A stretch of 64,000 nucleotides of DNA, taken from NCBI GenBank assembly GCA_964421635.1, contig CAYQWZ010000005.1:2748-66747 (forward strand), in the 5' to 3' direction. Positions 1 to 31,561 of the stretch are shown here, in pieces (the stretch's first letter is position 1; every line of letters begins with the position of its first letter). The notes beneath the pieces are model-generated. The model saw only the letters and a list, made by a program, of their open reading frames with translations, made no database searches and was not told where the DNA came from. The position numbers and the translations under genes were made by a program. This DNA comes from an uncultured Candidatus Saccharibacteria bacterium (GTDB taxonomy: Bacteria; Patescibacteriota; UBA1384; CAILIB01; JAUSJZ01).

Positions 1-504
1 CTCATCAGCAAAGATAATCTGCGGGTCATTAATAAGGGCGCGAGCAATGGCCACTCTTTGTTGTTGACCGCCTGATAATTGATTGGAAAAATGATGTAGG
101 CGGTCACCAAGCCCGACTCGTTCTAACGCTTTGCGAGCGCGACCGTCAGCATCAGCTTTATTAATATGATACTGAATTGGTAATTTAACATTATCGAGGG
201 CAGTAGTGCGAGATAGTAGGTTAAACTGCTGAAAGACAAATCCTACCCAATCGGAACGAAGTTCTGCTCGATCTTCATCTTTTAAATGAGCCACACTTTT
301 ACCATCAATCTTAACTGTGCCGCTATTCGGCGTATCTAGTAATCCTAATATATGCATGAGAGTAGATTTGCCTGAGCCAGAAGGTCCAATAATTGCAATA
401 AATTCTCCGCGCTCAATATTTAAATTTACTTCACGCAAAGCCCAAATAGAAACACCATCGAGATCGTAATGCTTCGTTATATTATCGACTTCAATAAAGG
501 CCAT
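1..504 (-). CDS. ABC transporter ATP-binding protein, MacB/LolD-like (C-terminal end lies outside window)
   Basis: Minus-strand translation from ATG at 504 gives Walker A (GPSGSGKST), ABC signature LSGGQQQRVAIARAL and Walker B IIFADE; start is 1 nt after the stop of the upstream HlyD gene (translational coupling). Confidence 0.85.
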   Translation of the reverse strand, partial: MAFIEVDNITKHYDLDGVSIWALREVNLNIERGEFIAIIGPSGSGKSTLMHILGLLDTPNSGTVKIDGKSVAHLKDEDRAELRSDWVGFVFQQFNLLSRTTALDNVKLPIQYHINKADADGRARKALERVGLGDRLHHFSNQLSGGQQQRVAIARALINDPQIIFADE

Positions 505-505
505 T

Positions 506-1747
506 TTACTCCTCTATTTCTACCTCAGCCGAATCCTCTAAATCTCTCACATTATTGCTGACCACAACTTGATCTCCCAGACTTACTCCAGACAACACCT
601 GCGCATCTGTGGCAGATTCAATGCCCAGCTCTACAACTGTTTTTTCAGCCCTACCGTCACGGTAAACATATACTATGTCATCGTCATCTTCAACAATAAT
701 GGCGCGAGATGGAATTGATAGAACATCGGAAACAGTTTCAATTTTAAAACTTGCTTGTCCTGAAAATCCGGCTCTAAAAGTCTTTAACGGCTTATCAATT
801 GTGATAACAACAATATAAATTTCACTACCAGTTGAGTTTAGAGTTGAAGTGCCTGACACATATTGAATTTTGCCAGAAAATGTTTCACCTGGATAAGAGT
901 CAATTTCTAAGTCAACTTCTTGACCAGCAACCAAATTAGCCACATCTGTTTCATCAACTTCAGCTTCAAATCTTAATGCGCTAGGATTAAATACGGTGAC
1001 TACATGCTGCCCTTGAGTTGTCACTTTTTGTGAAACCGCCACTAACTGACCAGAGGCGTCACGAGCTAAACTGACAACTCCTGAAATTGGAGTCAACACA
1101 GTTTTGTTATCATAGTTTTTTTGAGCAGCAGTAAGTACCGCTTCGGCAGAAGTGACAGCCTGTTCAGCCGATTTTAAATCAAGGGCATCTGGGTTTGCCT
1201 CTAAAGCTGCGTGATAAGTTTTTAAAGCTAATTCATGAGCAGTAATAGCTGCATTCCAAGCCGCTTTATTAGTCTCATTATTTGTTTGGTCATAAGCAAA
1301 ATGGGCAGCATCTCGAGCAGCTCTTGCTTGATCAACAGCCGCTTGATAGTAAGTTATATCAATATCATTTAAAACAGATTCTTTAGCTGTTTCGCGCGCC
1401 TGTTTTGTCTGTAATAAAGCTAGCTCGGCTGCTTGTACAGCAGAATTAAGAGCTTCTTCTTTGTATGAATAAAGCGCTTGACCGGCAGCCACCGCTTGGC
1501 CTTCTTGTACAAAAACTTGATCAATTTGCGCCGTTAGGGGAGCATAAACATTATTACTATCTGGGGCTTTCAGTTCACCTGAAGTAGAAATAGTTTTGGT
1601 GATTGTTTTTGTTGCCACTTTGTCTAATTCAACAATTGGCTTCTTGCCATTGCCGCCAAACACCACAAAAAGAATAATTATTACTACTAGCCAGAGCCAC
1701 CAACGCGTCTTCAAAGACTTTATTAAAGATTTAAATATTTTTTTCAT
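506..1747 (-). CDS. HlyD-family membrane fusion protein (MacA-like periplasmic adaptor)
   Basis: 413-aa ORF with N-terminal membrane anchor, long Ala/Gln-rich coiled-coil hairpin, and beta-barrel/lipoyl-like segments typical of RND/MacA MFPs; directly precedes the ABC ATPase. Confidence 0.8.
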   Translation of the reverse strand: MKKIFKSLIKSLKTRWWLWLVVIIILFVVFGGNGKKPIVELDKVATKTITKTISTSGELKAPDSNNVYAPLTAQIDQVFVQEGQAVAAGQALYSYKEEALNSAVQAAELALLQTKQARETAKESVLNDIDITYYQAAVDQARAARDAAHFAYDQTNNETNKAAWNAAITAHELALKTYHAALEANPDALDLKSAEQAVTSAEAVLTAAQKNYDNKTVLTPISGVVSLARDASGQLVAVSQKVTTQGQHVVTVFNPSALRFEAEVDETDVANLVAGQEVDLEIDSYPGETFSGKIQYVSGTSTLNSTGSEIYIVVITIDKPLKTFRAGFSGQASFKIETVSDVLSIPSRAIIVEDDDDIVYVYRDGRAEKTVVELGIESATDAQVLSGVSLGDQVVVSNNVRDLEDSAEVEIEE

Positions 1748-5180: not shown

Positions 5181-8100
5181 ATGAAAGGAGGGCAAATAAC
5201 CAGAGAGTTTAAGTTGTGGAGGCCCTTATCCCGAGTTTTTGTTTGGGCGGTTTTAGCGTTGGTAGTTTTTGTACCTTTGCAGGCCGAGTCTGCCATTAAT
5301 AAACAGCTACAATTTTCAGGCAAACTTACCAAGTCAGACAAAACTAATGTTACTAATGGAGCGTACGGTTTTAAATTTGAAATTTTTAGCGTTGCTTCTG
5401 GCGGCTCAGCTTTATGGACAGAAACTTGGAATGGCTCAAGTTCAAAAATAACAGTCACCGACGGATTATTCTCAATTGCTTTGGGCACTTACACAGATTT
5501 AAGTGTCGTAGATTTTAATAGCTCAAGCTTATATTTAGCAATTTCGTTTGACCCTGGAAACGACGGTACATACGAAGAACTATTTACTACCCGCATCCGT
5601 CTGACCTCAAGCCCTTACTCCCTAAACTCTGACAAACTTGATGGAAAGGATGAAAGTGAATTCGCCGATTTATCCGAAGCCGAAACCATTTCTAATGACT
5701 GGTTATTTGGCGAGGATATCCGTTTTGGTGATGCTGACAATAGTAATTACATCGGTTTTCAGGCTCCAGCCAATATTTCTACGAATGTCATTTGGACTTT
5801 GCCAAGTGTTGACGGCACAGTTAATCAAGTATTAAAGACTGACGGTAATGGCACTCTTAGCTGGGCCGATAGCAGTAGTGGCACTATTGATTTAACTTCC
5901 GAAGTTACGGGCACATTGCCTATTACTAACGGCGGTACCGGCCAAATTACAGCTGCCAATGCTATTAATGCACTCTTGCCAACCCAAACTGGAAATAGTG
6001 GCAAGTATTTAACCACTAACGGTTCAGTCTCCAGCTGGGCCGCAGTTGCTGGAGGAGGCGCTAGTAATATAGCCGACCTAGACGATGTCACTATATCTTC
6101 CGTGGCAGACAATGAAATTTTTCAGTATGATAATGGAACATCAAAATGGATTAATCAAACTTTTGCTGAAGCTGGTATCGCCGTCACGGGTGATCTGCAC
6201 GATGCGGTGACAGTAGTAGACAGCGACACTATTGACTTCACTCTCTCCACGCAACAGATTACCGCAATCGTCATCGCCGACTCCATCGACGATACTCACA
6301 TTGATTGGGGCTCGGGTGCCAACCAAGTTGATTTGGACGACATTCCCGATGGCACTTCATACGAACGAGTGGCGGCCGCGCAGTTAAGTTCTGGAATCTA
6401 TATTGATGCTTCAACTGCCACTAAAGGTATCGCCTCTTTCACTGCCGCCGACTTTGATGCTGCCTCGGGTGTAATCTCTATTGACTACGCTAACGGGACC
6501 GCAGCTTCAGGTGCAGCTAAAGGTTTCTTAACCGCTGCCGACTGGACTACCTTTAATAGTAAACAAGCAGCTGGTAGCTACATCACTTCGTTTACCCTAG
6601 CCGGTACCTCGGGCTCCAACCAGACCATCTCTCAAGGAGACACTTTAACCATTGCTGCCGGTACAGATATCACCACTACAGGCGGAGCAACAGATATAAT
6701 AACTGTCGCTAACTCTTCTACTTTGGCTACTGTTACTGGTAGAGGAGCTACGACAACCACCTTGGTTAACTTAGATGGTGGTATTGCCGTTGACACCTCG
6801 AACTTCACGGTTTCTGGAACAACTGGAGCGACTGCTATCACGGCTGTTAACGCCGCTTCTGGCTCCCTAAACGCTCTTGGTCTGTCTGGAACACTGGGCA
6901 TTTTTAACGGCACCGACACCTTCCGTGGCATCTATCTTAACTACACCAACGCCAACCACACTGGTTCATCCAATTATGTTTACGGCTTAGATATTGCGGC
7001 TATTACTGCTGATGCGGAAGCTACAGAGCGGGCTATTAATGTTGGAGTTGGCTGGGATGTTGGATTATACATTGCTGATGCTGCTACCTATTCCCTGCAG
7101 TTAGCTTCCACAGATGGTGATGCCGCTTCGGGTATTACATTTGGAACAGATACCAACCTCTACCGCTCCGCTGCTAATACTCTAAAAACAGATGACGCGC
7201 TAATTGTTACCGGACACACTACCTTTGAAGGAGTCACCTCTACAGGTGCTACGGGTACTGGCAAACTAGTTTACGGCACTTCACCTACTTTAGCTACTCC
7301 TATCTTAGGAGCAGCTACCTACACTACCTTATCTGGTGGTAATATAACTAATTCAGCTTTAACTTCGGGTAGACTTACTTACGCCGGTACTTCAGGAATC
7401 CTTCAAGACTCTGCCAATATGACATTTGGCGCTACCTATGGATTAACTCTAGCTGCTGGTTCTACTTCTGGTTTACAGCTATCTTCAACGGCTGGTACGG
7501 CGGCGGGTGGAATCCTTCTTGGTACGGACACTAACATTTATCGCTCCGCTGCTAATATTTTAAAGACAGATGATTCCTTTACTGTTGGTACTAATCTTGT
7601 AGTAACAGGGTCCACAACTTTAGATACATCTTTGACTGGAATGGTTAAAGCTTCTTCGGGGGTTATCTCAGCCGCGTCAGCTGGAACAGATTATCTTGTT
7701 CCCGGCGGTACATTGTTTACCCTAGCCGGTACCTCAGGCTCTAACCAGACTATCTCGCAAGGGAACACTCTAACCATCGCTGCCGGAACAGATATTACTA
7801 CTACTGGTGGGGCTACGGATACTGTAACTGTTGCTAACTCATCTACTCTAGCTACGGTTACAGGTAGAGGAGCTACTACTACCACTTTAACTAATCTTGA
7901 TGGCGGTATTGCTATAGATACGGACAACTTTACCGTTTCGGGGACTTCCGGTGCCCTAGCCATTGCTGGCGCCATGACTACCGGAACTGCTGCTAACATC
8001 TCTTTTGATAGTGCCGGACAGACTGGCGCTTTAACTGGCCTAAATGTAGATTTTTCCAATATCACAGCTGACGGCACCAATACTGTTTATGGCATTCATG

Positions 8101-11100
8101 TTCAAGATCCAGTTTCTAATACAGCTAGTACCGAATACGGAATCTACCAAGCTGGCACTAACTGGGATTATGGTGGCTATTTTGAAGACGATCTTCGTAC
8201 AACCGGCATGGACATTCAACAAGCTAGTGCTGATCCGCAAATTCACTTTGATTTCTACTCCTCCGGAGCAAGCGATAACACTGGTGAAACAGTCGCCGGC
8301 ACTGGCGCTGATGATGCTTCTATGGGAACAATTGCTTGGTCTAACCCCAGCAGAGTTACGGCTGATGATGGGTCACGAGCACAGTGTATCTTTTCTGGAG
8401 TCAGCACCTGTCACTATCTCAAAGCAACAAACTTTGGTTTTAGCATTCCCGAAGGCTCATCTATCATCGGCATAGTGGCAACAGTAGAAGGATTGTGTCC
8501 GGTATGGTCAGGTGCGGCTACATGGGAATCTGTACGACTAGTTGATGGAGACGGGACTATTGTGGGAGATGATAAATCCCCGGATACTGCTTTTCCTTCT
8601 GGCGAAGATACAAAAACTGATTTTGGTGCATCCGATAACACCTGGAGCGCCTCTCTAGATAGAAATGACATCAATGATTCAGATTTTGGTTTTGTTTTTA
8701 CAGGTTCAAGATCAGGAGGACTTAACTCCCAACTGTTAATTGATGCTATGTACGTCACGGTCTATTATTCCAGCGCCGAACAAGACTACGACTGGACCAT
8801 GGGTATTGATGAAGATGCCGGTGGAATATTTGCTATCTCCAGAAGCGCCGGTACGCTGGGTAGTAATAACGCTCTCACAATCGATTCAAACAGCGACGTC
8901 ACCATCTCTTCCGACTTATCTGTCACGGACACCTTGACCGTAAACGGAGTCAACGCCGCTGGTGGTTCTGCTGATGCCACCACACTAACGGGCACTCTGG
9001 GTGCTATGGATGGTTCTGATACTTACCGCGGCTTGTATCTCAATTACACCAACGCTGACCACACCGGTGCCAGTAATGTTTTTTATGGATTAGATATTGC
9101 CGGTATTACTGCCGACGCCGACGCCACCGAATATGCAATGAATATTGGAGCCGGCTGGGATGCTGGTCTTTATATCGCTGATGGTGCCACTTATTCCTTA
9201 CAGTTAGCCTCCACTGATGGCGATGCGGCTTCAGGAATAACTTTTGGTACAGACACTAACCTCTACCGCAGTGCTGCTGACACCCTGAAAACAGATGATG
9301 CCTTAATTGTTACTGGCCATACCACCTTTGAGGGAGTTACTTCTACAGGTGCTACTGGTACCGGAAAGTTAGTCTACGACAACACACCCACTTTAATTAC
9401 CCCTGCCCTGGGAGCAGCCACCTACACTACCTTATCTGGTGGTAATATAACCAATTCAGCTTTAACTTCGGGTAGAGTTACTTATGCTGGCACAGCCGGA
9501 ATCCTGCAAGACTCTGCCAACATGACATTTGATACCACAAACGGTCTAAAGCTGGCCGCCGGAAGCGCATCCGCTCTTCAACTCACCTCAACCGCTGGAA
9601 CCTCAGTGGGTGGAGTTATGTTTGGTGCAGATACTAATTTATATCGTGTCTATGATACGGAAGCCCGATTACAAACAGATAATCCTCTAAATGTTGGTGG
9701 AACAATACAAATAAATCCATTTATCAGTGGTGGTGGTTATGTTTCTACCTACTCCTATCGTGATGATACAGGTGGTGGTGGACTTTCAACAAATGCCGCT
9801 AGAGGCACAAGGGCCACCCCAACTGTAATTCACGATGACGACTATTTAGGTAACTTTAACTTTAATGGTTACGATGGAAATTCTTATGAAATAGGTGGTC
9901 AGTTTAGATTTATGGTTGATGGAACAGTTAGCGATGGGGTTGTACCGGGAAGGTTTGAAGTAAATACAACTACTTCTGGAGGAGTATCAACTTTAGGACT
10001 AACTTTAGATAGTGCCCAAAAGCTCTGGCTTGGTAGCACCTTAGACACCAACCTTTATCGCGGTGCCGCTAATGAATTAACAACCGATGATCTCCTCTCC
10101 TTCAGCTCGACTAAAGCTGCCAACGCCGTCGACTTCAAATCCTACAAACCAGATAGCGCTGGCGGAGCTCAGTTCTTATTTAACACTTCAGCCGCAATTT
10201 CATCCGCCACCATCTTTGCTGTACAAGAGAATGGTACAAACGCATTTCTAATTGATAAAGATAATCAAGTCTTAATGCCCGCTGTTTATAACGACACTGT
10301 TGGTGGCACTAATCGCGACTTATTTATAGATAACACTGGTAAACTGGGATATGTCGTCTCTTCAGAAAGATATAAAGAGAACATAGTAGCATTGCAGAAC
10401 AATAACACTGACTGGCTTTATGACCTACGACCAGTATCCTTTGATTATAAAGATAAAAATCTCGGCGTAGATCAAATTGGTTTAATAGCCGAAGAGGTAG
10501 CCGAAATATTCCCTAATATTGTTAGCTACAGCCGTGAAAATCCAAATCTGGCTGAGACAGTTAGTTACAGTAAATTAGTTGTGCCGTTGCTTAACGAAGT
10601 ACAAAATCTTAACCAAGACTTGTCTACTGTAGATATTGCAGTAGCACAAATTCAGTCGGACATTATTGAAAGACTGACCACTCAGACTGCTATCCTTAAT
10701 ACCATTGAAAGCTCTGCCGGTAAAGATTTGGTACTCAAATCAAGTTCAGGCAAAGTTATTGTTGATTCTTCTATTGAGGTAAACGGCAAAGTGATCTTTC
10801 ATAATGATCTGACTGTCCACGGAGAAATCGCTGGTGTTAGTATTGACCTTGAAGAAAATAAATCGACTGGTCGAGGTACAATAGTCAATAACGAAGATAA
10901 GGTATATATCAAAACAGATATTATTGAGCCAGACGACAAGGTACTGCTAACACCTATTATCACAAATAAAAACGAAACTGACTTACAGGGTAACAGCGTT
11001 CAGCTTTACAGAGGTATTATAGATGAGGGCATCGGATTTTGGGTACACGTCATTAGCAGTCGCGATTTAGAGAAAGAATTGCCGTTCGATTGGCTAATAG

Positions 11101-11108
11101 TCAAATAG
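5181..11108 (+). CDS. giant secreted repeat protein (1975 aa) with C-terminal tail-fibre-type intramolecular chaperone (Peptidase_S74-like) domain
   Basis: Single uninterrupted ORF; N-terminal signal peptide (..VFVPLQAESA); long G/T/A/S-rich beta-repeat region with large internal duplications; a lectin-like segment (~8.25-8.77 kb); near the C-terminus GYVVSSERYKENIVALQNNNTDWLYDLRPVSFDYKDKN..IGLIAEEVAEIFPNIV..SYSKLVVPLLNEVQNL matches the endosialidase/T5 L-shaped tail-fibre chaperone motif (S-x-x-R-x-K-x-N-I ... PV-x-Y/F-x-YK ... G-x-IAQEV ... Y-x-x-L-x-P-L-L), followed by a predicted coiled-coil. Confidence 0.9.
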   Translation: MKGGQITREFKLWRPLSRVFVWAVLALVVFVPLQAESAINKQLQFSGKLTKSDKTNVTNGAYGFKFEIFSVASGGSALWTETWNGSSSKITVTDGLFSIALGTYTDLSVVDFNSSSLYLAISFDPGNDGTYEELFTTRIRLTSSPYSLNSDKLDGKDESEFADLSEAETISNDWLFGEDIRFGDADNSNYIGFQAPANISTNVIWTLPSVDGTVNQVLKTDGNGTLSWADSSSGTIDLTSEVTGTLPITNGGTGQITAANAINALLPTQTGNSGKYLTTNGSVSSWAAVAGGGASNIADLDDVTISSVADNEIFQYDNGTSKWINQTFAEAGIAVTGDLHDAVTVVDSDTIDFTLSTQQITAIVIADSIDDTHIDWGSGANQVDLDDIPDGTSYERVAAAQLSSGIYIDASTATKGIASFTAADFDAASGVISIDYANGTAASGAAKGFLTAADWTTFNSKQAAGSYITSFTLAGTSGSNQTISQGDTLTIAAGTDITTTGGATDIITVANSSTLATVTGRGATTTTLVNLDGGIAVDTSNFTVSGTTGATAITAVNAASGSLNALGLSGTLGIFNGTDTFRGIYLNYTNANHTGSSNYVYGLDIAAITADAEATERAINVGVGWDVGLYIADAATYSLQLASTDGDAASGITFGTDTNLYRSAANTLKTDDALIVTGHTTFEGVTSTGATGTGKLVYGTSPTLATPILGAATYTTLSGGNITNSALTSGRLTYAGTSGILQDSANMTFGATYGLTLAAGSTSGLQLSSTAGTAAGGILLGTDTNIYRSAANILKTDDSFTVGTNLVVTGSTTLDTSLTGMVKASSGVISAASAGTDYLVPGGTLFTLAGTSGSNQTISQGNTLTIAAGTDITTTGGATDTVTVANSSTLATVTGRGATTTTLTNLDGGIAIDTDNFTVSGTSGALAIAGAMTTGTAANISFDSAGQTGALTGLNVDFSNITADGTNTVYGIHVQDPVSNTASTEYGIYQAGTNWDYGGYFEDDLRTTGMDIQQASADPQIHFDFYSSGASDNTGETVAGTGADDASMGTIAWSNPSRVTADDGSRAQCIFSGVSTCHYLKATNFGFSIPEGSSIIGIVATVEGLCPVWSGAATWESVRLVDGDGTIVGDDKSPDTAFPSGEDTKTDFGASDNTWSASLDRNDINDSDFGFVFTGSRSGGLNSQLLIDAMYVTVYYSSAEQDYDWTMGIDEDAGGIFAISRSAGTLGSNNALTIDSNSDVTISSDLSVTDTLTVNGVNAAGGSADATTLTGTLGAMDGSDTYRGLYLNYTNADHTGASNVFYGLDIAGITADADATEYAMNIGAGWDAGLYIADGATYSLQLASTDGDAASGITFGTDTNLYRSAADTLKTDDALIVTGHTTFEGVTSTGATGTGKLVYDNTPTLITPALGAATYTTLSGGNITNSALTSGRVTYAGTAGILQDSANMTFDTTNGLKLAAGSASALQLTSTAGTSVGGVMFGADTNLYRVYDTEARLQTDNPLNVGGTIQINPFISGGGYVSTYSYRDDTGGGGLSTNAARGTRATPTVIHDDDYLGNFNFNGYDGNSYEIGGQFRFMVDGTVSDGVVPGRFEVNTTTSGGVSTLGLTLDSAQKLWLGSTLDTNLYRGAANELTTDDLLSFSSTKAANAVDFKSYKPDSAGGAQFLFNTSAAISSATIFAVQENGTNAFLIDKDNQVLMPAVYNDTVGGTNRDLFIDNTGKLGYVVSSERYKENIVALQNNNTDWLYDLRPVSFDYKDKNLGVDQIGLIAEEVAEIFPNIVSYSRENPNLAETVSYSKLVVPLLNEVQNLNQDLSTVDIAVAQIQSDIIERLTTQTAILNTIESSAGKDLVLKSSSGKVIVDSSIEVNGKVIFHNDLTVHGEIAGVSIDLEENKSTGRGTIVNNEDKVYIKTDIIEPDDKVLLTPIITNKNETDLQGNSVQLYRGIIDEGIGFWVHVISSRDLEKELPFDWLIVK
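6590..9660 (+). repeat. large intragenic protein-level repeats inside the giant gene (unit ~6590-7715 repeated at ~7715-8060; unit ~6890-7560 repeated at ~8995-9640)
   Basis: Near-identical amino-acid stretches (e.g. FTLAGTSGSNQTISQG(D/N)TLTIAAGTDITTTGGATD..; YLNYTNA(N/D)HTG...LYRSAA(N/D)TLKTDDALIVTGHTTFEGVTSTGATGTGKLVY) encoded with many synonymous nucleotide differences. Confidence 0.85.
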
Positions 11109-24601: not shown

Positions 24602-25315
24602 TTATTCGTGTCTTAAAGCATCTATTGGACTTAAAGCAGCCGCTTTCTTGGCCGGGTACCAACCAAAAACCAACCCCACTGCCATTGCTACTGATAAAGC
24701 CAAAATTATTGAGTTCATATTCATAGCCACACTTAAATCAAATAAGGAGCTGGCTAGATAAGCAAAAATATAACCCAATATAACCCCGACAATGCCACCA
24801 AGAGTAGTTAACACAATAGCCTCAATCATGAACTGAGATAGAATATCGCTTCGCTTAGCACCAATAGCTTTTAGTAATCCTATTTCTTTAGTCCGCTCGG
24901 CAATAGTAACCAACATAATATTCATTATGCCAATTCCACCAACCACTAAAGAGATAGCCGCAATTCCTGCTAATAAAGAGACCATAGTACTAGTAACACT
25001 ACTAATCGAATCAATCATTGACTGGGCACTTCTTAATCTAAAGTCAGCGTCGTCAGCGTTAGAAATACCATGATTGTCTAAAAGTACTTGCTCAACTGTC
25101 TCTGTATAGTCAGTCACTATTTCTGGATCAGAAATAGCCACACTAATAGAAGTTGGATTATCTGAACCAACTAAAATTTTTTGAGCTGTACCAATAGGCG
25201 TTAAAACATCTGAACTATCGTTAATAACCCCAATAACTCTGAAACTACTTTGGTCAACTCTAATTTTTTTACCAACTACAGATTGATTTTCACCAAAAAG
25301 CTCGGTCATCCGCAT
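24602..25315 (-). pseudogene. C-terminal fragment of MacB/FtsX-type ABC permease
   Basis: Translation matches the end of the MacB periplasmic domain plus the 4-TM FtsX domain (..TAERTKEIGLLKAIGA.., ..LSPIDALRHE); upstream in frame there is no MacB-like sequence (stop at 25373-25375) and no ATPase domain, so the gene is 5'-truncated. Confidence 0.7.
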
Positions 25316-27430
25316 GACCCAAATATATCAGTGGTACCGAAAGAGTTTTCTGACTACAAGACCAATTCAATACTCACTCCTACTGATAGACGTGTGCTCG
25401 AACAGAGTTATTTCAAAGGTGGTACTCCATCTAACATAACCATTGACCACTTGCAAAACATACACGAGTACTTCAAGAGTAAGGGGTATTCCGCAATACA
25501 AACACCACGACCTTCAGACGTAAGTGGTGCCGCCACAGAGATGGTTATTATTGACCCCTCTAAGATTAAAACCAAATCCCAACTAACCGACCTCTACAAC
25601 CAAGCACACGCTAAACCTAGTGAGTTACCCCAGAACCCTCTACTAGCAGAAGCCCGTAAGTATAAGAGTGCGGAGGAGTTTGTGAATAAAATACAAGGTA
25701 GTAAGACTCAATACACAGATTACACCCCAGGATTAAGGACTGGTGGCACTTCTTCTGAGTCTATGAGGATAAGCAAACTGGGTGTTAATCCAAATCAGGA
25801 AGTAACAATTTATAGAGGAGTCCCAAAAGGTATAAAAGGTAGTATAAATTCTGGTGATTTTGTAACTACTGATTTACAGTCGGCAAAAGACTATGCAGGT
25901 AATGGTGCCGTGTTATCAACTAAAACAAAAGCCAAGAACCTTATCACGGAGTACTCTAGTGAGTTTGATAAAAACAACCCATTTAGTCCTGGCAGTGAAT
26001 TTATCTACTCGACAGAAAGTGCGTCAAAACCATTGACCAAATCCCAACTAACCGACATCTACAACCAAGCCACTAAGGCAGCATCTCTAAAAACTGCGGG
26101 ACAAACTGGACTAGAACCATTGCAGTCCAGTAAAGCGTTAGGGGTAGAACAACAAAATATACAAAAGGTTCAGATTGGGGGAGGTTTGAAAGCTCTTCAA
26201 CCAGAAGAGTCTGTTTTTCTCGGTAAAAAGCTGAAAGTATCGGAGACACCAGAACAAATAACGATAAAAAGAGAAGGAACAAAACAATTATCAGAATGGG
26301 AGTCCAAAGAAGGTATATCAAAGCGTTCATCTAGTTTAGATAGTATAGAGACTCCAAGAGTTGTCAAGCCCGAAGACATTAAAACAGGTGAATACTTAGA
26401 CCCCGAAGATGCTATACAAGCGACAGAGTTTGCGAGAGAGTTTGGTGATGAAAAAACATTTAAGCCTATATTTGATAGATTTATAGGTAAAAGAGAAGCA
26501 GCCAAAACTAAGGGCGCTTTAGTTGGTAACAAATATGTCAATATATCCGTTAAAGATGGCTTTGATGTAATAGATGGACTAGAAGGGATTGGTACTAATA
26601 AAGCGGTTGGAAAAGATGTAGCGTTACTTAGAAACGAGTACGACACCTTACGACAGCTGGCTAATAAAGAAGGTCTAAACATAAACTTCAAAGAGGATTA
26701 TATAACTCATATTTGGAAAGAATCTCCAGCAGATGTACAAAAAGTTCTTTCCGCTAAGGGTGGTTTTAAGTACGCTAAACAAAGAACTATACCAACATAT
26801 AGAGAAGGTTTGAAACTTGGACTTACACCTAAATATACCCATCCTGCACCTATAATTGCAGAATATGTTACAAAGTTAGAACAAACAAAAGCAGCTCTGG
26901 ATATGTTCAAAACTCTGAAGAAACAGGGGATAATAGTGCCTGCTAAAGTTGGCGCTAGTAATATAGATTTTGAGCCAATCGTTGCGGGTGGATTTCCTAA
27001 GTCAACTACTAACATTGGTGATGGAAGAACTTATATCGGCAACTGGTATGCTCCTAAACAAGTTGCAGATTTGATAAATAGTGTTTTCTCTCCTAGAGCA
27101 GAAAATAAGTTATTAGGATTCACAGCCAACATTTCAAGGGGAGTACAAGATGTATCTATGGGTGGTGGTATCGCATATACTCCTATTAACTTCTTTACTA
27201 TTGCTAACTCAATAAAGGAATTGACTGCATTTCGTGGTAGAGCCCCCTTTAAGGCTTTAGCACACTCAATAACTGATGGTTCTTCTAAAAGATATTTTGC
27301 TCAACACGCAAGCACTATTATAAAGATGCAAGAGAATAACATTCCAATATCAACTAGTTTTTCTACTGAAACTCTTGTACCAAGAGCATTATCTAAAAGC
27401 ATTGGTCAAAAAGCTGCATCTGCTTCTTGA
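25250..27430 (+). CDS. large hypothetical protein (up to 726 aa) with internal repeat KSQLTD(L/I)YNQA; no recognisable domains
   Basis: Long ORF antisense to, and lying between, the two efflux-gene fragments; first 66 nt overlap the MacB fragment so the true start is probably an internal GTG/ATG (e.g. GTG ~25331); repeat copies near aa 105-125 and 262-282. Confidence 0.65.
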   Translation: MVNSNFFTNYRLIFTKKLGHPHDPNISVVPKEFSDYKTNSILTPTDRRVLEQSYFKGGTPSNITIDHLQNIHEYFKSKGYSAIQTPRPSDVSGAATEMVIIDPSKIKTKSQLTDLYNQAHAKPSELPQNPLLAEARKYKSAEEFVNKIQGSKTQYTDYTPGLRTGGTSSESMRISKLGVNPNQEVTIYRGVPKGIKGSINSGDFVTTDLQSAKDYAGNGAVLSTKTKAKNLITEYSSEFDKNNPFSPGSEFIYSTESASKPLTKSQLTDIYNQATKAASLKTAGQTGLEPLQSSKALGVEQQNIQKVQIGGGLKALQPEESVFLGKKLKVSETPEQITIKREGTKQLSEWESKEGISKRSSSLDSIETPRVVKPEDIKTGEYLDPEDAIQATEFAREFGDEKTFKPIFDRFIGKREAAKTKGALVGNKYVNISVKDGFDVIDGLEGIGTNKAVGKDVALLRNEYDTLRQLANKEGLNINFKEDYITHIWKESPADVQKVLSAKGGFKYAKQRTIPTYREGLKLGLTPKYTHPAPIIAEYVTKLEQTKAALDMFKTLKKQGIIVPAKVGASNIDFEPIVAGGFPKSTTNIGDGRTYIGNWYAPKQVADLINSVFSPRAENKLLGFTANISRGVQDVSMGGGIAYTPINFFTIANSIKELTAFRGRAPFKALAHSITDGSSKRYFAQHASTIIKMQENNIPISTSFSTETLVPRALSKSIGQKAASAS

Positions 27431-27744
27431 ATAACTGTAAATAGAGTTTGCCCTTCATAAACATAATCTCCATTACTAACAGATAATCCTCTCACCACAC
27501 CACTGACAGAAGCCGTTATATCTACTGATCCTACCACCTCTATCTCACCAACTTCTGAAATAGAATTTATTACATTACCTTTTTCTACTTGGCCGTAGGT
27601 ATATTCAGTACTAGCCGAATCTTGATCTTTTTTAGTACCAAAAAAATAAAACAGACCTCCTGTGACTAAAACAGCAAGAATAATATATTTTAGAAAATTT
27701 TTTTTAAGCATAATTTTATTAGCTTCCCTTTGGCATGTTGCCAT
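27406..27744 (-). pseudogene. N-terminal fragment of HlyD-family membrane fusion protein
   Basis: 112 aa: signal-anchor plus first lipoyl-like half (..VSGVVRGLSVSNGDYVYEGQTLFTV..) but no coiled-coil or beta-barrel domains; compare intact paralog at 506-1747. Confidence 0.6.
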
Positions 27745-28036
27745 TCATCTTACGCATAGTGCGCATAGTATCTCTCATTTCCACCCTTTCTTCTTCAGAC
27801 ATATTTTCCATTCCCTCTGGCATCTCTGGTTTCACTTCTTCCATTTTCTGAGCAATCTCTTCTTCAGACAATCCTTGTTCTCGCCAATACTCTTGCATTA
27901 CCTCATTTTGACGTTCCATGTTTTTGGGGTTCATGTTAAAACGACCCCGATTATTTTGTTTCTTTAAAAAAAACCAACTGCCGAGTAAAACTATAACTAG
28001 CAGTAACAAAAAAATGATGATCTTCTTTTTCTTCAT
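27719..28036 (-). CDS. small secreted/anchored Met-rich protein
   Basis: 105 aa, N-terminal hydrophobic anchor, C-terminal half rich in M/E (MPEGMENMSEEERVEMRDTMRTMRKMNGNMP). Confidence 0.5.
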   Translation of the reverse strand: MKKKKIIIFLLLLVIVLLGSWFFLKKQNNRGRFNMNPKNMERQNEVMQEYWREQGLSEEEIAQKMEEVKPEMPEGMENMSEEERVEMRDTMRTMRKMNGNMPKGS

Positions 28037-30503: not shown

Positions 30504-30530
30504 GCCTGCCCTAACTATTGTCAGGCAGGC
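30504..30530 (-). terminator. GC-rich palindrome family copy 1 (GCCTGCC-n13-GGCAGGC) acting as terminator of 30521-31561
   Basis: Hairpin immediately at the stop codon, followed on the minus strand by T9. Confidence 0.6.
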
Positions 30531-31561
30531 GGAGTTTGACCACGCGCGTCTTCGGCTCTTCTTTCTATTAAGTCTTGTAGCACTTCGGGTGGATAATGCC
30601 ACTCTGGCCGATTGTTCCCAGCGACTCTTTTCTGTCGTCGCTTACCTCTGATTCTATTTAGCACCCAGGTAAGACTTTTACCAACCCTTCTACTTAATTC
30701 ACATGTTGTGAGCCAATCTCCTGCTTCAACAAGTCTATTTACCTCAGGCCTTAATTCGTCAACTATTTCAGGAGGATAATGGATAAATATCTTACCCGAC
30801 CCAGGAATTCGTCTTAACTCTCCATCGGTACGACCTTTAAGACGAGCTCGAACCCATAAATAATCTTTTCCAAGTATGACAGCAATACTATGAGCACTTA
30901 ACCAGTCACCCCTTTCTAGATATTTATTAGACAGACCTTTGAGAATAGGTAATACCCACGGAGGCCAATGTCTAGTAACTCGGTTAGCTTTATTTGCCCG
31001 TTCTTCTCCGGGCTGATTCATCTGATCTAAACGGCTACCAATCCAGAGACGAGAACGACCTAGCTCTTGTGTCATATATCCCATGGTAATCCAGCCATTT
31101 GCCCCTTTACTCTCAGCTGACATCCTTACAAGTTCCGGAATAACCGCCAGAGGATAACAACGAAACACTCCGCCTCTGCAAATTCGTTTCTCATTAGGAA
31201 AGGGCAAACTTTCTATTCGTGCCTTGACCCACTTATAGCTCCTACCAACTCTGGAATATATTTGACCAACTGATAGCCAGTCTCGAGCAGGCTGGTACAG
31301 CCCAGAATCGTTCTCTTGTCGGCGTAGCTTTCTAAGTAAATTCGACAATAGTAGTAGCCTGTCATATATCCAGACTCGAGCCTCACCGTAATGCTCAAAT
31401 GTCATTTTACTTTCCCAAGCCCGCTTATAAACAAGCTCTACAATATTTCGTGCATCATGAGTGTCAAAAACCAGACTGATAGCACCACTTAGCAGGATTT
31501 CTTCTGTTGCTGTTTTGAATCGAGCGAACCTTTGAGCTCGTTGTTCATCTACCAACCTCAT
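30521..31561 (-). CDS. hypothetical protein with four tandem Trp-containing HTH-like repeats
   Basis: 346 aa, GC-elevated; repeats RDWLSVGQIYSRVGRSYKWVKARI / NGWITMGYMTQELGRSRLWIGSRL / GDWLSAHSIAVILGKDYLWVRARL / GDWLTTCELSRRVGKSLTWVLNRI. Confidence 0.65.
   Translation of the reverse strand: MRLVDEQRAQRFARFKTATEEILLSGAISLVFDTHDARNIVELVYKRAWESKMTFEHYGEARVWIYDRLLLLSNLLRKLRRQENDSGLYQPARDWLSVGQIYSRVGRSYKWVKARIESLPFPNEKRICRGGVFRCYPLAVIPELVRMSAESKGANGWITMGYMTQELGRSRLWIGSRLDQMNQPGEERANKANRVTRHWPPWVLPILKGLSNKYLERGDWLSAHSIAVILGKDYLWVRARLKGRTDGELRRIPGSGKIFIHYPPEIVDELRPEVNRLVEAGDWLTTCELSRRVGKSLTWVLNRIRGKRRQKRVAGNNRPEWHYPPEVLQDLIERRAEDARGQTPPA

Follow-up and report, generated by a model that had tools for sequence, protein, structure and literature searches.

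In a 64,000-nucleotide stretch of DNA from an uncultured Candidatus Saccharibacteria bacterium (the window), the segment 24602-27744 contains the two ends of an efflux operon separated by DNA of phage origin. It is highly probable that the interior of this operon was replaced by a piece of about 2.1 kb of a phage gene via illegitimate recombination, leaving three non-functional remnants. An earlier note on the same DNA had proposed gene replacement by illegitimate recombination, and this remained the best explanation, with an overlap of 12-16 nt between the host and phage homologies and no hallmarks of a transposon. The window represents a bacterial chromosome and carries SecA, FtsK, PPDK, YchF, and several aminoacyl-tRNA synthetases.

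Two Remnants of One Efflux Operon

A permease stub of the MacB/FtsX type with 237 aa is encoded on the minus strand at 24602-25315. It matched Pfam FtsX with E=2.7e-23, and the FtsX match was preceded by only positions 131-206 of the 207 positions of the MacB_PCD profile (the last ~75). While a full permease comprises the transmembrane helix TM1, the whole MacB periplasmic core, and TM2-4 of FtsX in about 395 aa, the stub keeps the end of the periplasmic domain and TM2-4. Intact orthologous permeases (395 aa) matched the window by residues 161-395 only, at 25306/25309-24605, and their N-terminal part was absent in every frame (tblastn). The host-derived part of the stub is 24602-25306. Its opening codons (MRM), both ATGs included, are antisense phage sequence, and inspection of the sequence revealed no visible Shine-Dalgarno (SD) motif upstream.

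The second stub, also on the minus strand (27406-27744), has 112 aa and belongs to a membrane fusion protein (MFP) of the HlyD/YknX type. The Pfam families Biotin_lipoyl_2, HlyD_3, and HlyD_D23 matched its residues 53-109. A complete MFP has a lipoyl domain, a helical hairpin, and a beta-barrel in about 400 aa, while what is left in the stub is the signal-anchor helix plus the opening strands of the lipoyl-like domain. Intact MFPs (396-398 aa) matched the window by residues 1-91 or 14-114 only (tblastn). The alignment of the stub with intact MFPs stops at ...GQTLFTV(IQEA), with residues ~1-105 left. The stub is host-derived down to ~27421-27433, and its final codons and stop codon are antisense phage sequence. 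An SD-like motif, AAGGGAAG, was seen upstream of ATG 27711 in the MFP stub. Both stubs had been recognized in the earlier note, as had the lack of MacB sequence upstream of the permease stub, and our searches agreed on all three points.

With the intact orthologues as tblastn queries, no trace of the ATPase, the C-terminal part of the MFP, or the N-terminal part of the permease was found between the stubs in any frame. Likewise, orthologous ATPases detected no cognate ABC ATPase in the 24.6-27.8 kb region; these queries matched elsewhere, in a paralogue at 1-504 and in an unrelated transporter at 15.6-16.2 kb. The first gene of the former operon is intact (27719-28036, minus strand). It codes for a 105-aa single-pass membrane protein, which is homologous to the 128-131-aa small proteins encoded immediately 5' of the MFP gene in two orthologous operons (loci L092 and L093) and shares the motif W..QGLSEEEI with them.

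Both orthologous operons have the order small membrane protein (128-131 aa), MFP (396-398 aa), ABC ATPase (227-235 aa), and permease (395 aa), and their MFPs match YknX-type beta-barrel families. The minus strand of the window follows the same order, with the small protein, the N-terminus of the MFP, the insert, and the C-terminus of the permease. Because the small upstream gene was kept and the gene order agrees with L092 and L093, the two stubs are, as judged from sequence, the correctly ordered and oriented ends of one former four-gene MacAB/YknXYZ-like operon. With L092 and L093 as the measure, 2061-2074 bp of host DNA (~2.06 kb) were lost, comprising the MFP gene from residue ~105 on, the whole ATPase gene, and residues 1-160 of the permease. 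The loss amounts to about 75% of the MFP and 40% of the permease. The pump would be dead, since its ATPase is absent, no hairpin, barrel, or membrane-proximal domain is left of the MFP, and the permease has lost TM1 together with most of its periplasmic domain.

The closest known systems on the host side are MacAB-type (type VII ABC) efflux systems whose subunits are separate, above all YknWXYZ of Bacillus subtilis, which consists of a small membrane protein, the MFP YknX, the ATPase YknY, and the permease YknZ. The intact orthologous operons have the same gene order, and the window keeps both ends of it. Unlike YknWXYZ, the window locus has no ATPase, and its remaining parts are predicted to be unable to form a pump. 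YknW is a multi-pass protein, whereas the small first protein of the window has 105 aa and one TM helix. The small protein with the W..QGLSEEEI motif precedes the MFP gene in L092 (3674-4069) and in L093 (3680-4066) and belongs to no Pfam family; it may be an uncharacterized fourth component of the pump.

The Insert Resembles the Middle of a Phage Gene

The plus-strand frame 25250-27430 is open over 726 codons (2.18 kb). The earlier note was correct in describing a single long opposite-strand open reading frame (ORF) between the stubs. It had also called this ORF an ORFan, a label that has to be withdrawn. A database search with the ORF yielded 61 matches with E values down to 1e-166, one of which was the window's own sequence. 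The ~60 true homologues are 436-1271 aa long, and 22 of them carry a precomputed match to PF18760 (ART-PolyVal), which was confirmed in the homologue P0005. The insert ORF itself had no Pfam match above threshold. The three best full-length homologues (P0002, P0003, and P0004) lie on phage-like contigs of 13-40 kb, and their neighbours are SU10-type adaptor, virion-structural/internal-virion, ERF, HNH, HTH, and LysM/CHAP genes. For P0003, a match to phrog_342, "internal virion protein", was obtained. Polyvalent proteins are believed to travel inside the capsid and to be injected along with the DNA (Iyer et al. 2017, PMC5512222). Based on these homologies, the foreign part of the frame (25292-27421, plus strand, ~710 codons) is a piece from a phage gene for a large polyvalent/internal-virion protein.

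The phage sequence begins inside a module. Residues 230-417 of P0003 form one complete module, which aligned end to end with modules of PF18760-bearing proteins and runs from EARKYKSAEEFV over YHGT and IFAS to EMVVIDPSK..LTDLYN.A. The insert begins at the equivalent of P0003 residue 312. Only the C-terminal half of this ART-PolyVal-type module is present (25292-25606), and the half with EARKYKSAEEFV...YHGT...IFAS is missing. Residues 15-176 of the ORF are 59% identical to residues 312-462 of P0003 (1185 aa in total), and the first 105 aa of the insert showed 82% identity to the phage locus L090 (tblastx). A complete internal module follows at 25628-26070 (ORF aa 127-274), from LLAEARKYKSAEEFV to KSQLTDIYNQA. 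It is 40-54% identical to modules in more than 15 homologues, and ORF aa 98-234 match PHROG 2579. The third part, 26357-27421, corresponds in protein alignments to the first ~355 aa of a large conserved C-terminal module, to which Pfam, PHROGs, and PDB sequence searches gave no name. Its identity to the phage locus L005 is 71% at the protein level (tblastx) and 72.5% at the nucleotide level. ORF residues 316-724 are 63% identical to residues 274-704 of P0002 (1131 aa in total), and the insert breaks off about 430 aa short of the end of P0002.

The start codon TTG 25250 and the stop codon TGA 27428-27430 of the frame lie in antisense host sequence, and GTG 25331, the annotated start of the 699-aa protein P0001, corresponds to a Val codon inside the phage gene. 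The closest homologues have a full-length architecture of ~1100-1250 aa with native start and stop codons. By these alignments the insert copy comes from inside such a gene and is truncated on both sides, and the middle ORF is not a complete gene. Like phage polyvalent proteins, the insert has the module boundaries EARKYKSAEEFV ... KSQLTDIYNQA and is homologous to multi-module ART-PolyVal phage proteins. It differs from them as a 710-codon internal piece without native start and stop, which sits inside a host efflux operon and not in a phage structural cluster. The best relatives are mosaic, with P0003 matching the 5' part of the insert and P0002 its 3' part. No close relative of the donor phage was found in IMG/VR.

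We also observed that module boundaries of polyvalent proteins are conserved in their nucleotides far beyond the proteins themselves. A 35-nt boundary motif, ACCAAATCCCAACTAACCGAC[C/A]TCTACAACCAAGC (TKSQLTD[L/I]YNQA), occurs twice in the insert (25571-25605 and 26036-26070). All 35 nucleotides were identical in an IMG/VR contig whose protein shows only 34% identity, and 37 of 38 were identical in L006 (10949-10986), where the protein is 31% identical. L094 (4794-4828) is among the loci of these boundary motifs. A stretch of 31 nt of the motif of the next module (EARKYKSAEEFV), at 25658-25688, was 97% identical in L090 (8304-8334). This suggests that the boundary motifs act as recombination linkers for module shuffling.

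A further phage-related gene is present in the window at 5181-11108 (plus strand). It codes for a 1975-aa chromosomal protein with a C-terminal Peptidase_S74 (endosialidase-chaperone) domain, which is typical of phage tail fibres or spikes. A 100-aa stretch of it (aa 295-391) shares 65% identity with the N-terminus of a protein (724 aa) from L005, the contig that also carries the closest homologue of the insert. The 1975-aa protein is either a second link of the host to that phage group or the product of a prophage-derived fibre gene.

Sequence of the Junctions and Integrity of the Assembly

At the left junction (25291-25306, CACCAAAAAGCTCGGT), the homologies to the phage sequence TKKLG on the plus strand and to the permease sequence TELFG on the minus strand overlap by 12-16 nt. 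At the homologous site L090 has CACCAAAAAGCTTGG / CACCAAAAAGCTTGGC, with 14 of 16 bases identical. Ten permease orthologues read (V)TELFGE and the stub reads (M)TELFGE; a phage relative reads TKKLGDPHDPN and the window TKKLGHPHDPN. The overlap is thus a candidate crossover microhomology. In the right junction zone (27413-27432), homology to the phage can be traced securely up to 27412/27418, and that to the MFP is secure from ~27433 on. Base-by-base comparison allowed for a microhomology of 0-9 nt here. DNA similarity to phage loci spans 25291 (L090) to 27413 (L005, blastn), which is exactly from junction to junction.

The earlier note had pointed to misassembly as something to be excluded, and this was achieved in effect. 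The protein P0001 is also encoded on contigs of ERZ27248922, ERZ27248897, ERZ27248954, Logan SRR8437246, and JGI 3300028169. These five further contigs (L001-L004 and L089) stem from four other samples and three pipelines (ENA/MEGAHIT, JGI, and Logan). They were 100% identical to the window across both junctions, with 1 mismatch in L003. A chimera of a host contig and a phage contig, made during assembly or binning, could be suspected since the phage locus L005 comes from ERZ27248885 and the host contigs come from the close accessions ERZ27248897, ERZ27248922, and ERZ27248954. Such a chimera is nevertheless very unlikely, because both junctions recur exactly in these further contigs, host and phage share at most 16 nt at the junctions, fewer than the k of any assembler, the DNA of the nearest sampled phages is just 72-76% identical, and the host flanks are the properly ordered and oriented ends of one operon.

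A direct repeat of 9 nt, CAAAAAGCT, is present at the left junction (25294-25302, plus strand) and again at the right junction (27407-27415, plus strand). It has only 5 copies in 64 kb, and in a post hoc test random pairs of windows of the same size shared a 9-mer or longer in 0.4% of the trials. A discrete foreign segment between direct repeats is also what a transposable element, a group II intron, or an integrase-driven island could leave. At the insert ends, however, we found neither terminal inverted repeats nor a target-site duplication, and Pfam and PHROG searches detected no domain of a transposase, reverse transcriptase, or integrase. With about 2 kb of host DNA lost between the flanks, the 9-mer does not qualify as a target-site duplication, and the insert comes from the interior of a structural phage gene. 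We rejected an origin from a transposon, intron, or integrase for the lack of inverted repeats and of such domains and for this internal position in a phage gene, and assign it practically no probability.

Proposed Course of the Replacement

We propose that about 2.06 kb was removed from the interior of the minus-strand four-gene operon and that its place was taken, in inverted orientation, by a copy of ~2.11 kb from the central part of a phage polyvalent/internal-virion gene. Joining would have occurred by illegitimate recombination without a transposase or integrase. On the left, the crossover would lie within the 12-16 nt that the phage gene has in common with the antisense strand of the permease gene; the right junction would have formed with little or no resolvable homology. 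Microhomology-mediated illegitimate recombination is suggested because the homologies overlap at the left junction and the hallmarks of a transposon are absent. Most likely, the donor DNA was a piece of the genome of an infecting phage whose infection was probably aborted, and it may have been captured during break repair (end-joining) or by template switching in replication. We infer this repair mechanism, a single step as opposed to several, and the loss of function, while the sequence data show how the locus is built, that the insert is of phage origin and truncated on both sides, that the junctions are reproducible, and that the homologies overlap on the left.

Homology-facilitated illegitimate recombination, short-patch double illegitimate recombination, microhomology-mediated end joining (MMEJ), and microhomology-mediated break-induced replication (MMBIR) are known routes for the capture of foreign DNA. 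As in such events, a foreign segment would have been joined at short shared sequences without features of a site-specific recombinase, and host sequence was replaced and not added to, with lengths lost and gained that are almost the same (~2.06 versus 2.11 kb). In contrast to these processes, only one junction has a clear microhomology here, and described short-patch events swap tens of bases versus 2 kb in the window. We know of no experimental system or DNA-uptake route for this organism, and our literature search found nothing on illegitimate recombination with phage DNA in Patescibacteria.

The same final state could have been reached in several steps, if a phage genome or a large piece of it had integrated in the operon and later deletions had taken most of it together with the flanking operon parts. 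Decay of prophages via deletion is common, and the gene for the 1975-aa Peptidase_S74 protein demonstrates that the host chromosome holds other phage-related sequence. No other phage sequence adjoins the insert, however, and at least three events would be required instead of one. Furthermore, the position of the left junction in a stretch shared by phage and permease suits a direct crossover better than a later random deletion. We regard the route over several steps as rather unlikely.

Several observations weigh against the replacement as proposed. A sister genome with an uninterrupted operon at this locus was not found in searches of GTDB, proteins, and metagenomes, and the ancestral state could be deduced from distant orthologues (59-61% identity) only. 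The comparison with related genomes that the earlier note had suggested hence succeeded for distant orthologues, which have the intact operon, and failed for a sister genome. No donor phage with more than 82% amino acid identity was found. Simple end-joining does not account for the 9-mer at both junctions or for the nearly equal lengths of lost and gained DNA (2061-2074 bp versus 2113 bp from repeat to repeat). In all three frames the reading is uninterrupted to this day, and among 89 columns that are otherwise invariant the permease stub differs at 8, versus 0-6 in intact relatives.

The 9-mer and the similar lengths leave room for a length-conserving mechanism with two microhomologies, and they may also be a coincidence. 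A single double-microhomology exchange on the kilobase scale, or alternatively the retention of the frame as a domesticated anti-phage decoy, appears quite unlikely. If the exchange had taken place, a phage strand would have annealed at, or been copied between, the two CAAAAAGCT sites, with 2.11 kb replacing 2.06 kb. It would then be the counterpart, on a larger scale, of short-patch double illegitimate recombination and would have operated while a phage infected a member of the candidate phyla radiation (CPR).

The replacement by illegitimate recombination, which we favour, belongs to a known class of events and to ordinary gene decay and does not constitute a new kind of system. Its host part is a degraded representative of the MacAB/YknXYZ-type systems, and its insert is one of the phage polyvalent/internal-virion proteins, likewise degraded. 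The three calls at this locus ("hypothetical", "ABC permease", and "HlyD") denote remnants and should carry a pseudogene annotation. The insert is a physical footprint of phage DNA within a chromosome of the Patescibacteria (CPR). It also links an uncultivated phage group to this host lineage independently of clustered regularly interspaced short palindromic repeats (CRISPR) spacers. This group comprises podovirus-like contigs that encode an SU10-type adaptor along with ART-PolyVal polyvalent proteins and that co-occur in assemblies with nearby accessions. The anatomy of the junctions, with a candidate microhomology, an inverted orientation, and an exchange of nearly equal lengths, may serve as a clean natural example of illegitimate recombination in a group of organisms whose DNA repair is poorly known.

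Intact Operons in Other Bacteria

The full-length permeases closest to the stub have 395 aa and 58-61% identity and stem from Patescibacteria (Pacebacteria, Shapirobacteria, and Woesebacteria). Since no near-identical full-length MFP or permease was present among 5.8 billion proteins (best full-length permease 61%), the intact allele is not among the sampled sequences. In the same search the MFP stub had no match except itself. When the GTDB species representatives were queried with the permease stub, the top match reached only 48% (Ca. Amesbacteria). In metagenomes scanned with the neighbouring DEAD helicase as the anchor, the top match was 53%, without conserved synteny.

Decay and Possible Selection

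The phage fragment is most likely inert filler. No SD-like motif was found on inspection of the sequence before TTG 25250, GTG 25331, or the first ATG of the insert ORF, while neighbouring genuine genes do have such motifs. Promoter-like sites numbered 11, versus 11.2 expected from shuffled sequence. The frames are open, and changes at invariant columns are not clearly in excess, which points to a probably recent event or else to some persisting selection.

A rival reading is that the fragment was domesticated. The phage-derived protein of 699-726 aa, and possibly the short MFP and permease as well, would then be expressed and useful, for example as a decoy for the donor phage group or as a factor that excludes superinfection by it. 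The frame of 2.18 kb is uninterrupted in an AT-rich genome, the internal module (aa 127-274) was kept complete, and the arrangement is the only allele sampled, in several samples. Yet the frame opens in the middle of a domain and closes in the middle of a module, both its start and its stop codon fall by accident in antisense host sequence, no SD-like motif precedes the candidate starts, and shuffled sequence contains promoter-like sites just as frequently. All sampled copies of the locus are identical in DNA apart from the single mismatch in one contig. We consider domestication distinctly improbable.

Paralogous Operon and a Repeat Protein

The earlier note had used an operon at the start of the window as an intact comparator. 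This YknX/MacAB-type operon is real (1-1747, minus strand), with the MFP gene at 506-1747 and the start of the ATPase gene at 1-504 (ABC_tran, E=3.6e-34). On other contigs of the same strain it extends to an ATPase of 241 aa and a MacB-type permease of at least 335 aa. It is, however, only a distant paralogue. The alignment that the note had suggested gave 36% identity between its permease and the permease stub and no significant match between its MFP and the MFP stub. Its MFP showed ~22% identity to an intact orthologous MFP.

An ORF of 346 aa at 30521-31561 (minus strand) contains about four internal repeats of ~45 aa, e.g., GDWLSAHSIAVILGKDYLWVRARL and GDWLTTCELSRRVGKSLTWVLNRI. It lies in a stretch whose G+C content of 0.44-0.47 is above that of the surroundings, and it possibly codes for a foreign DNA-binding repeat protein.

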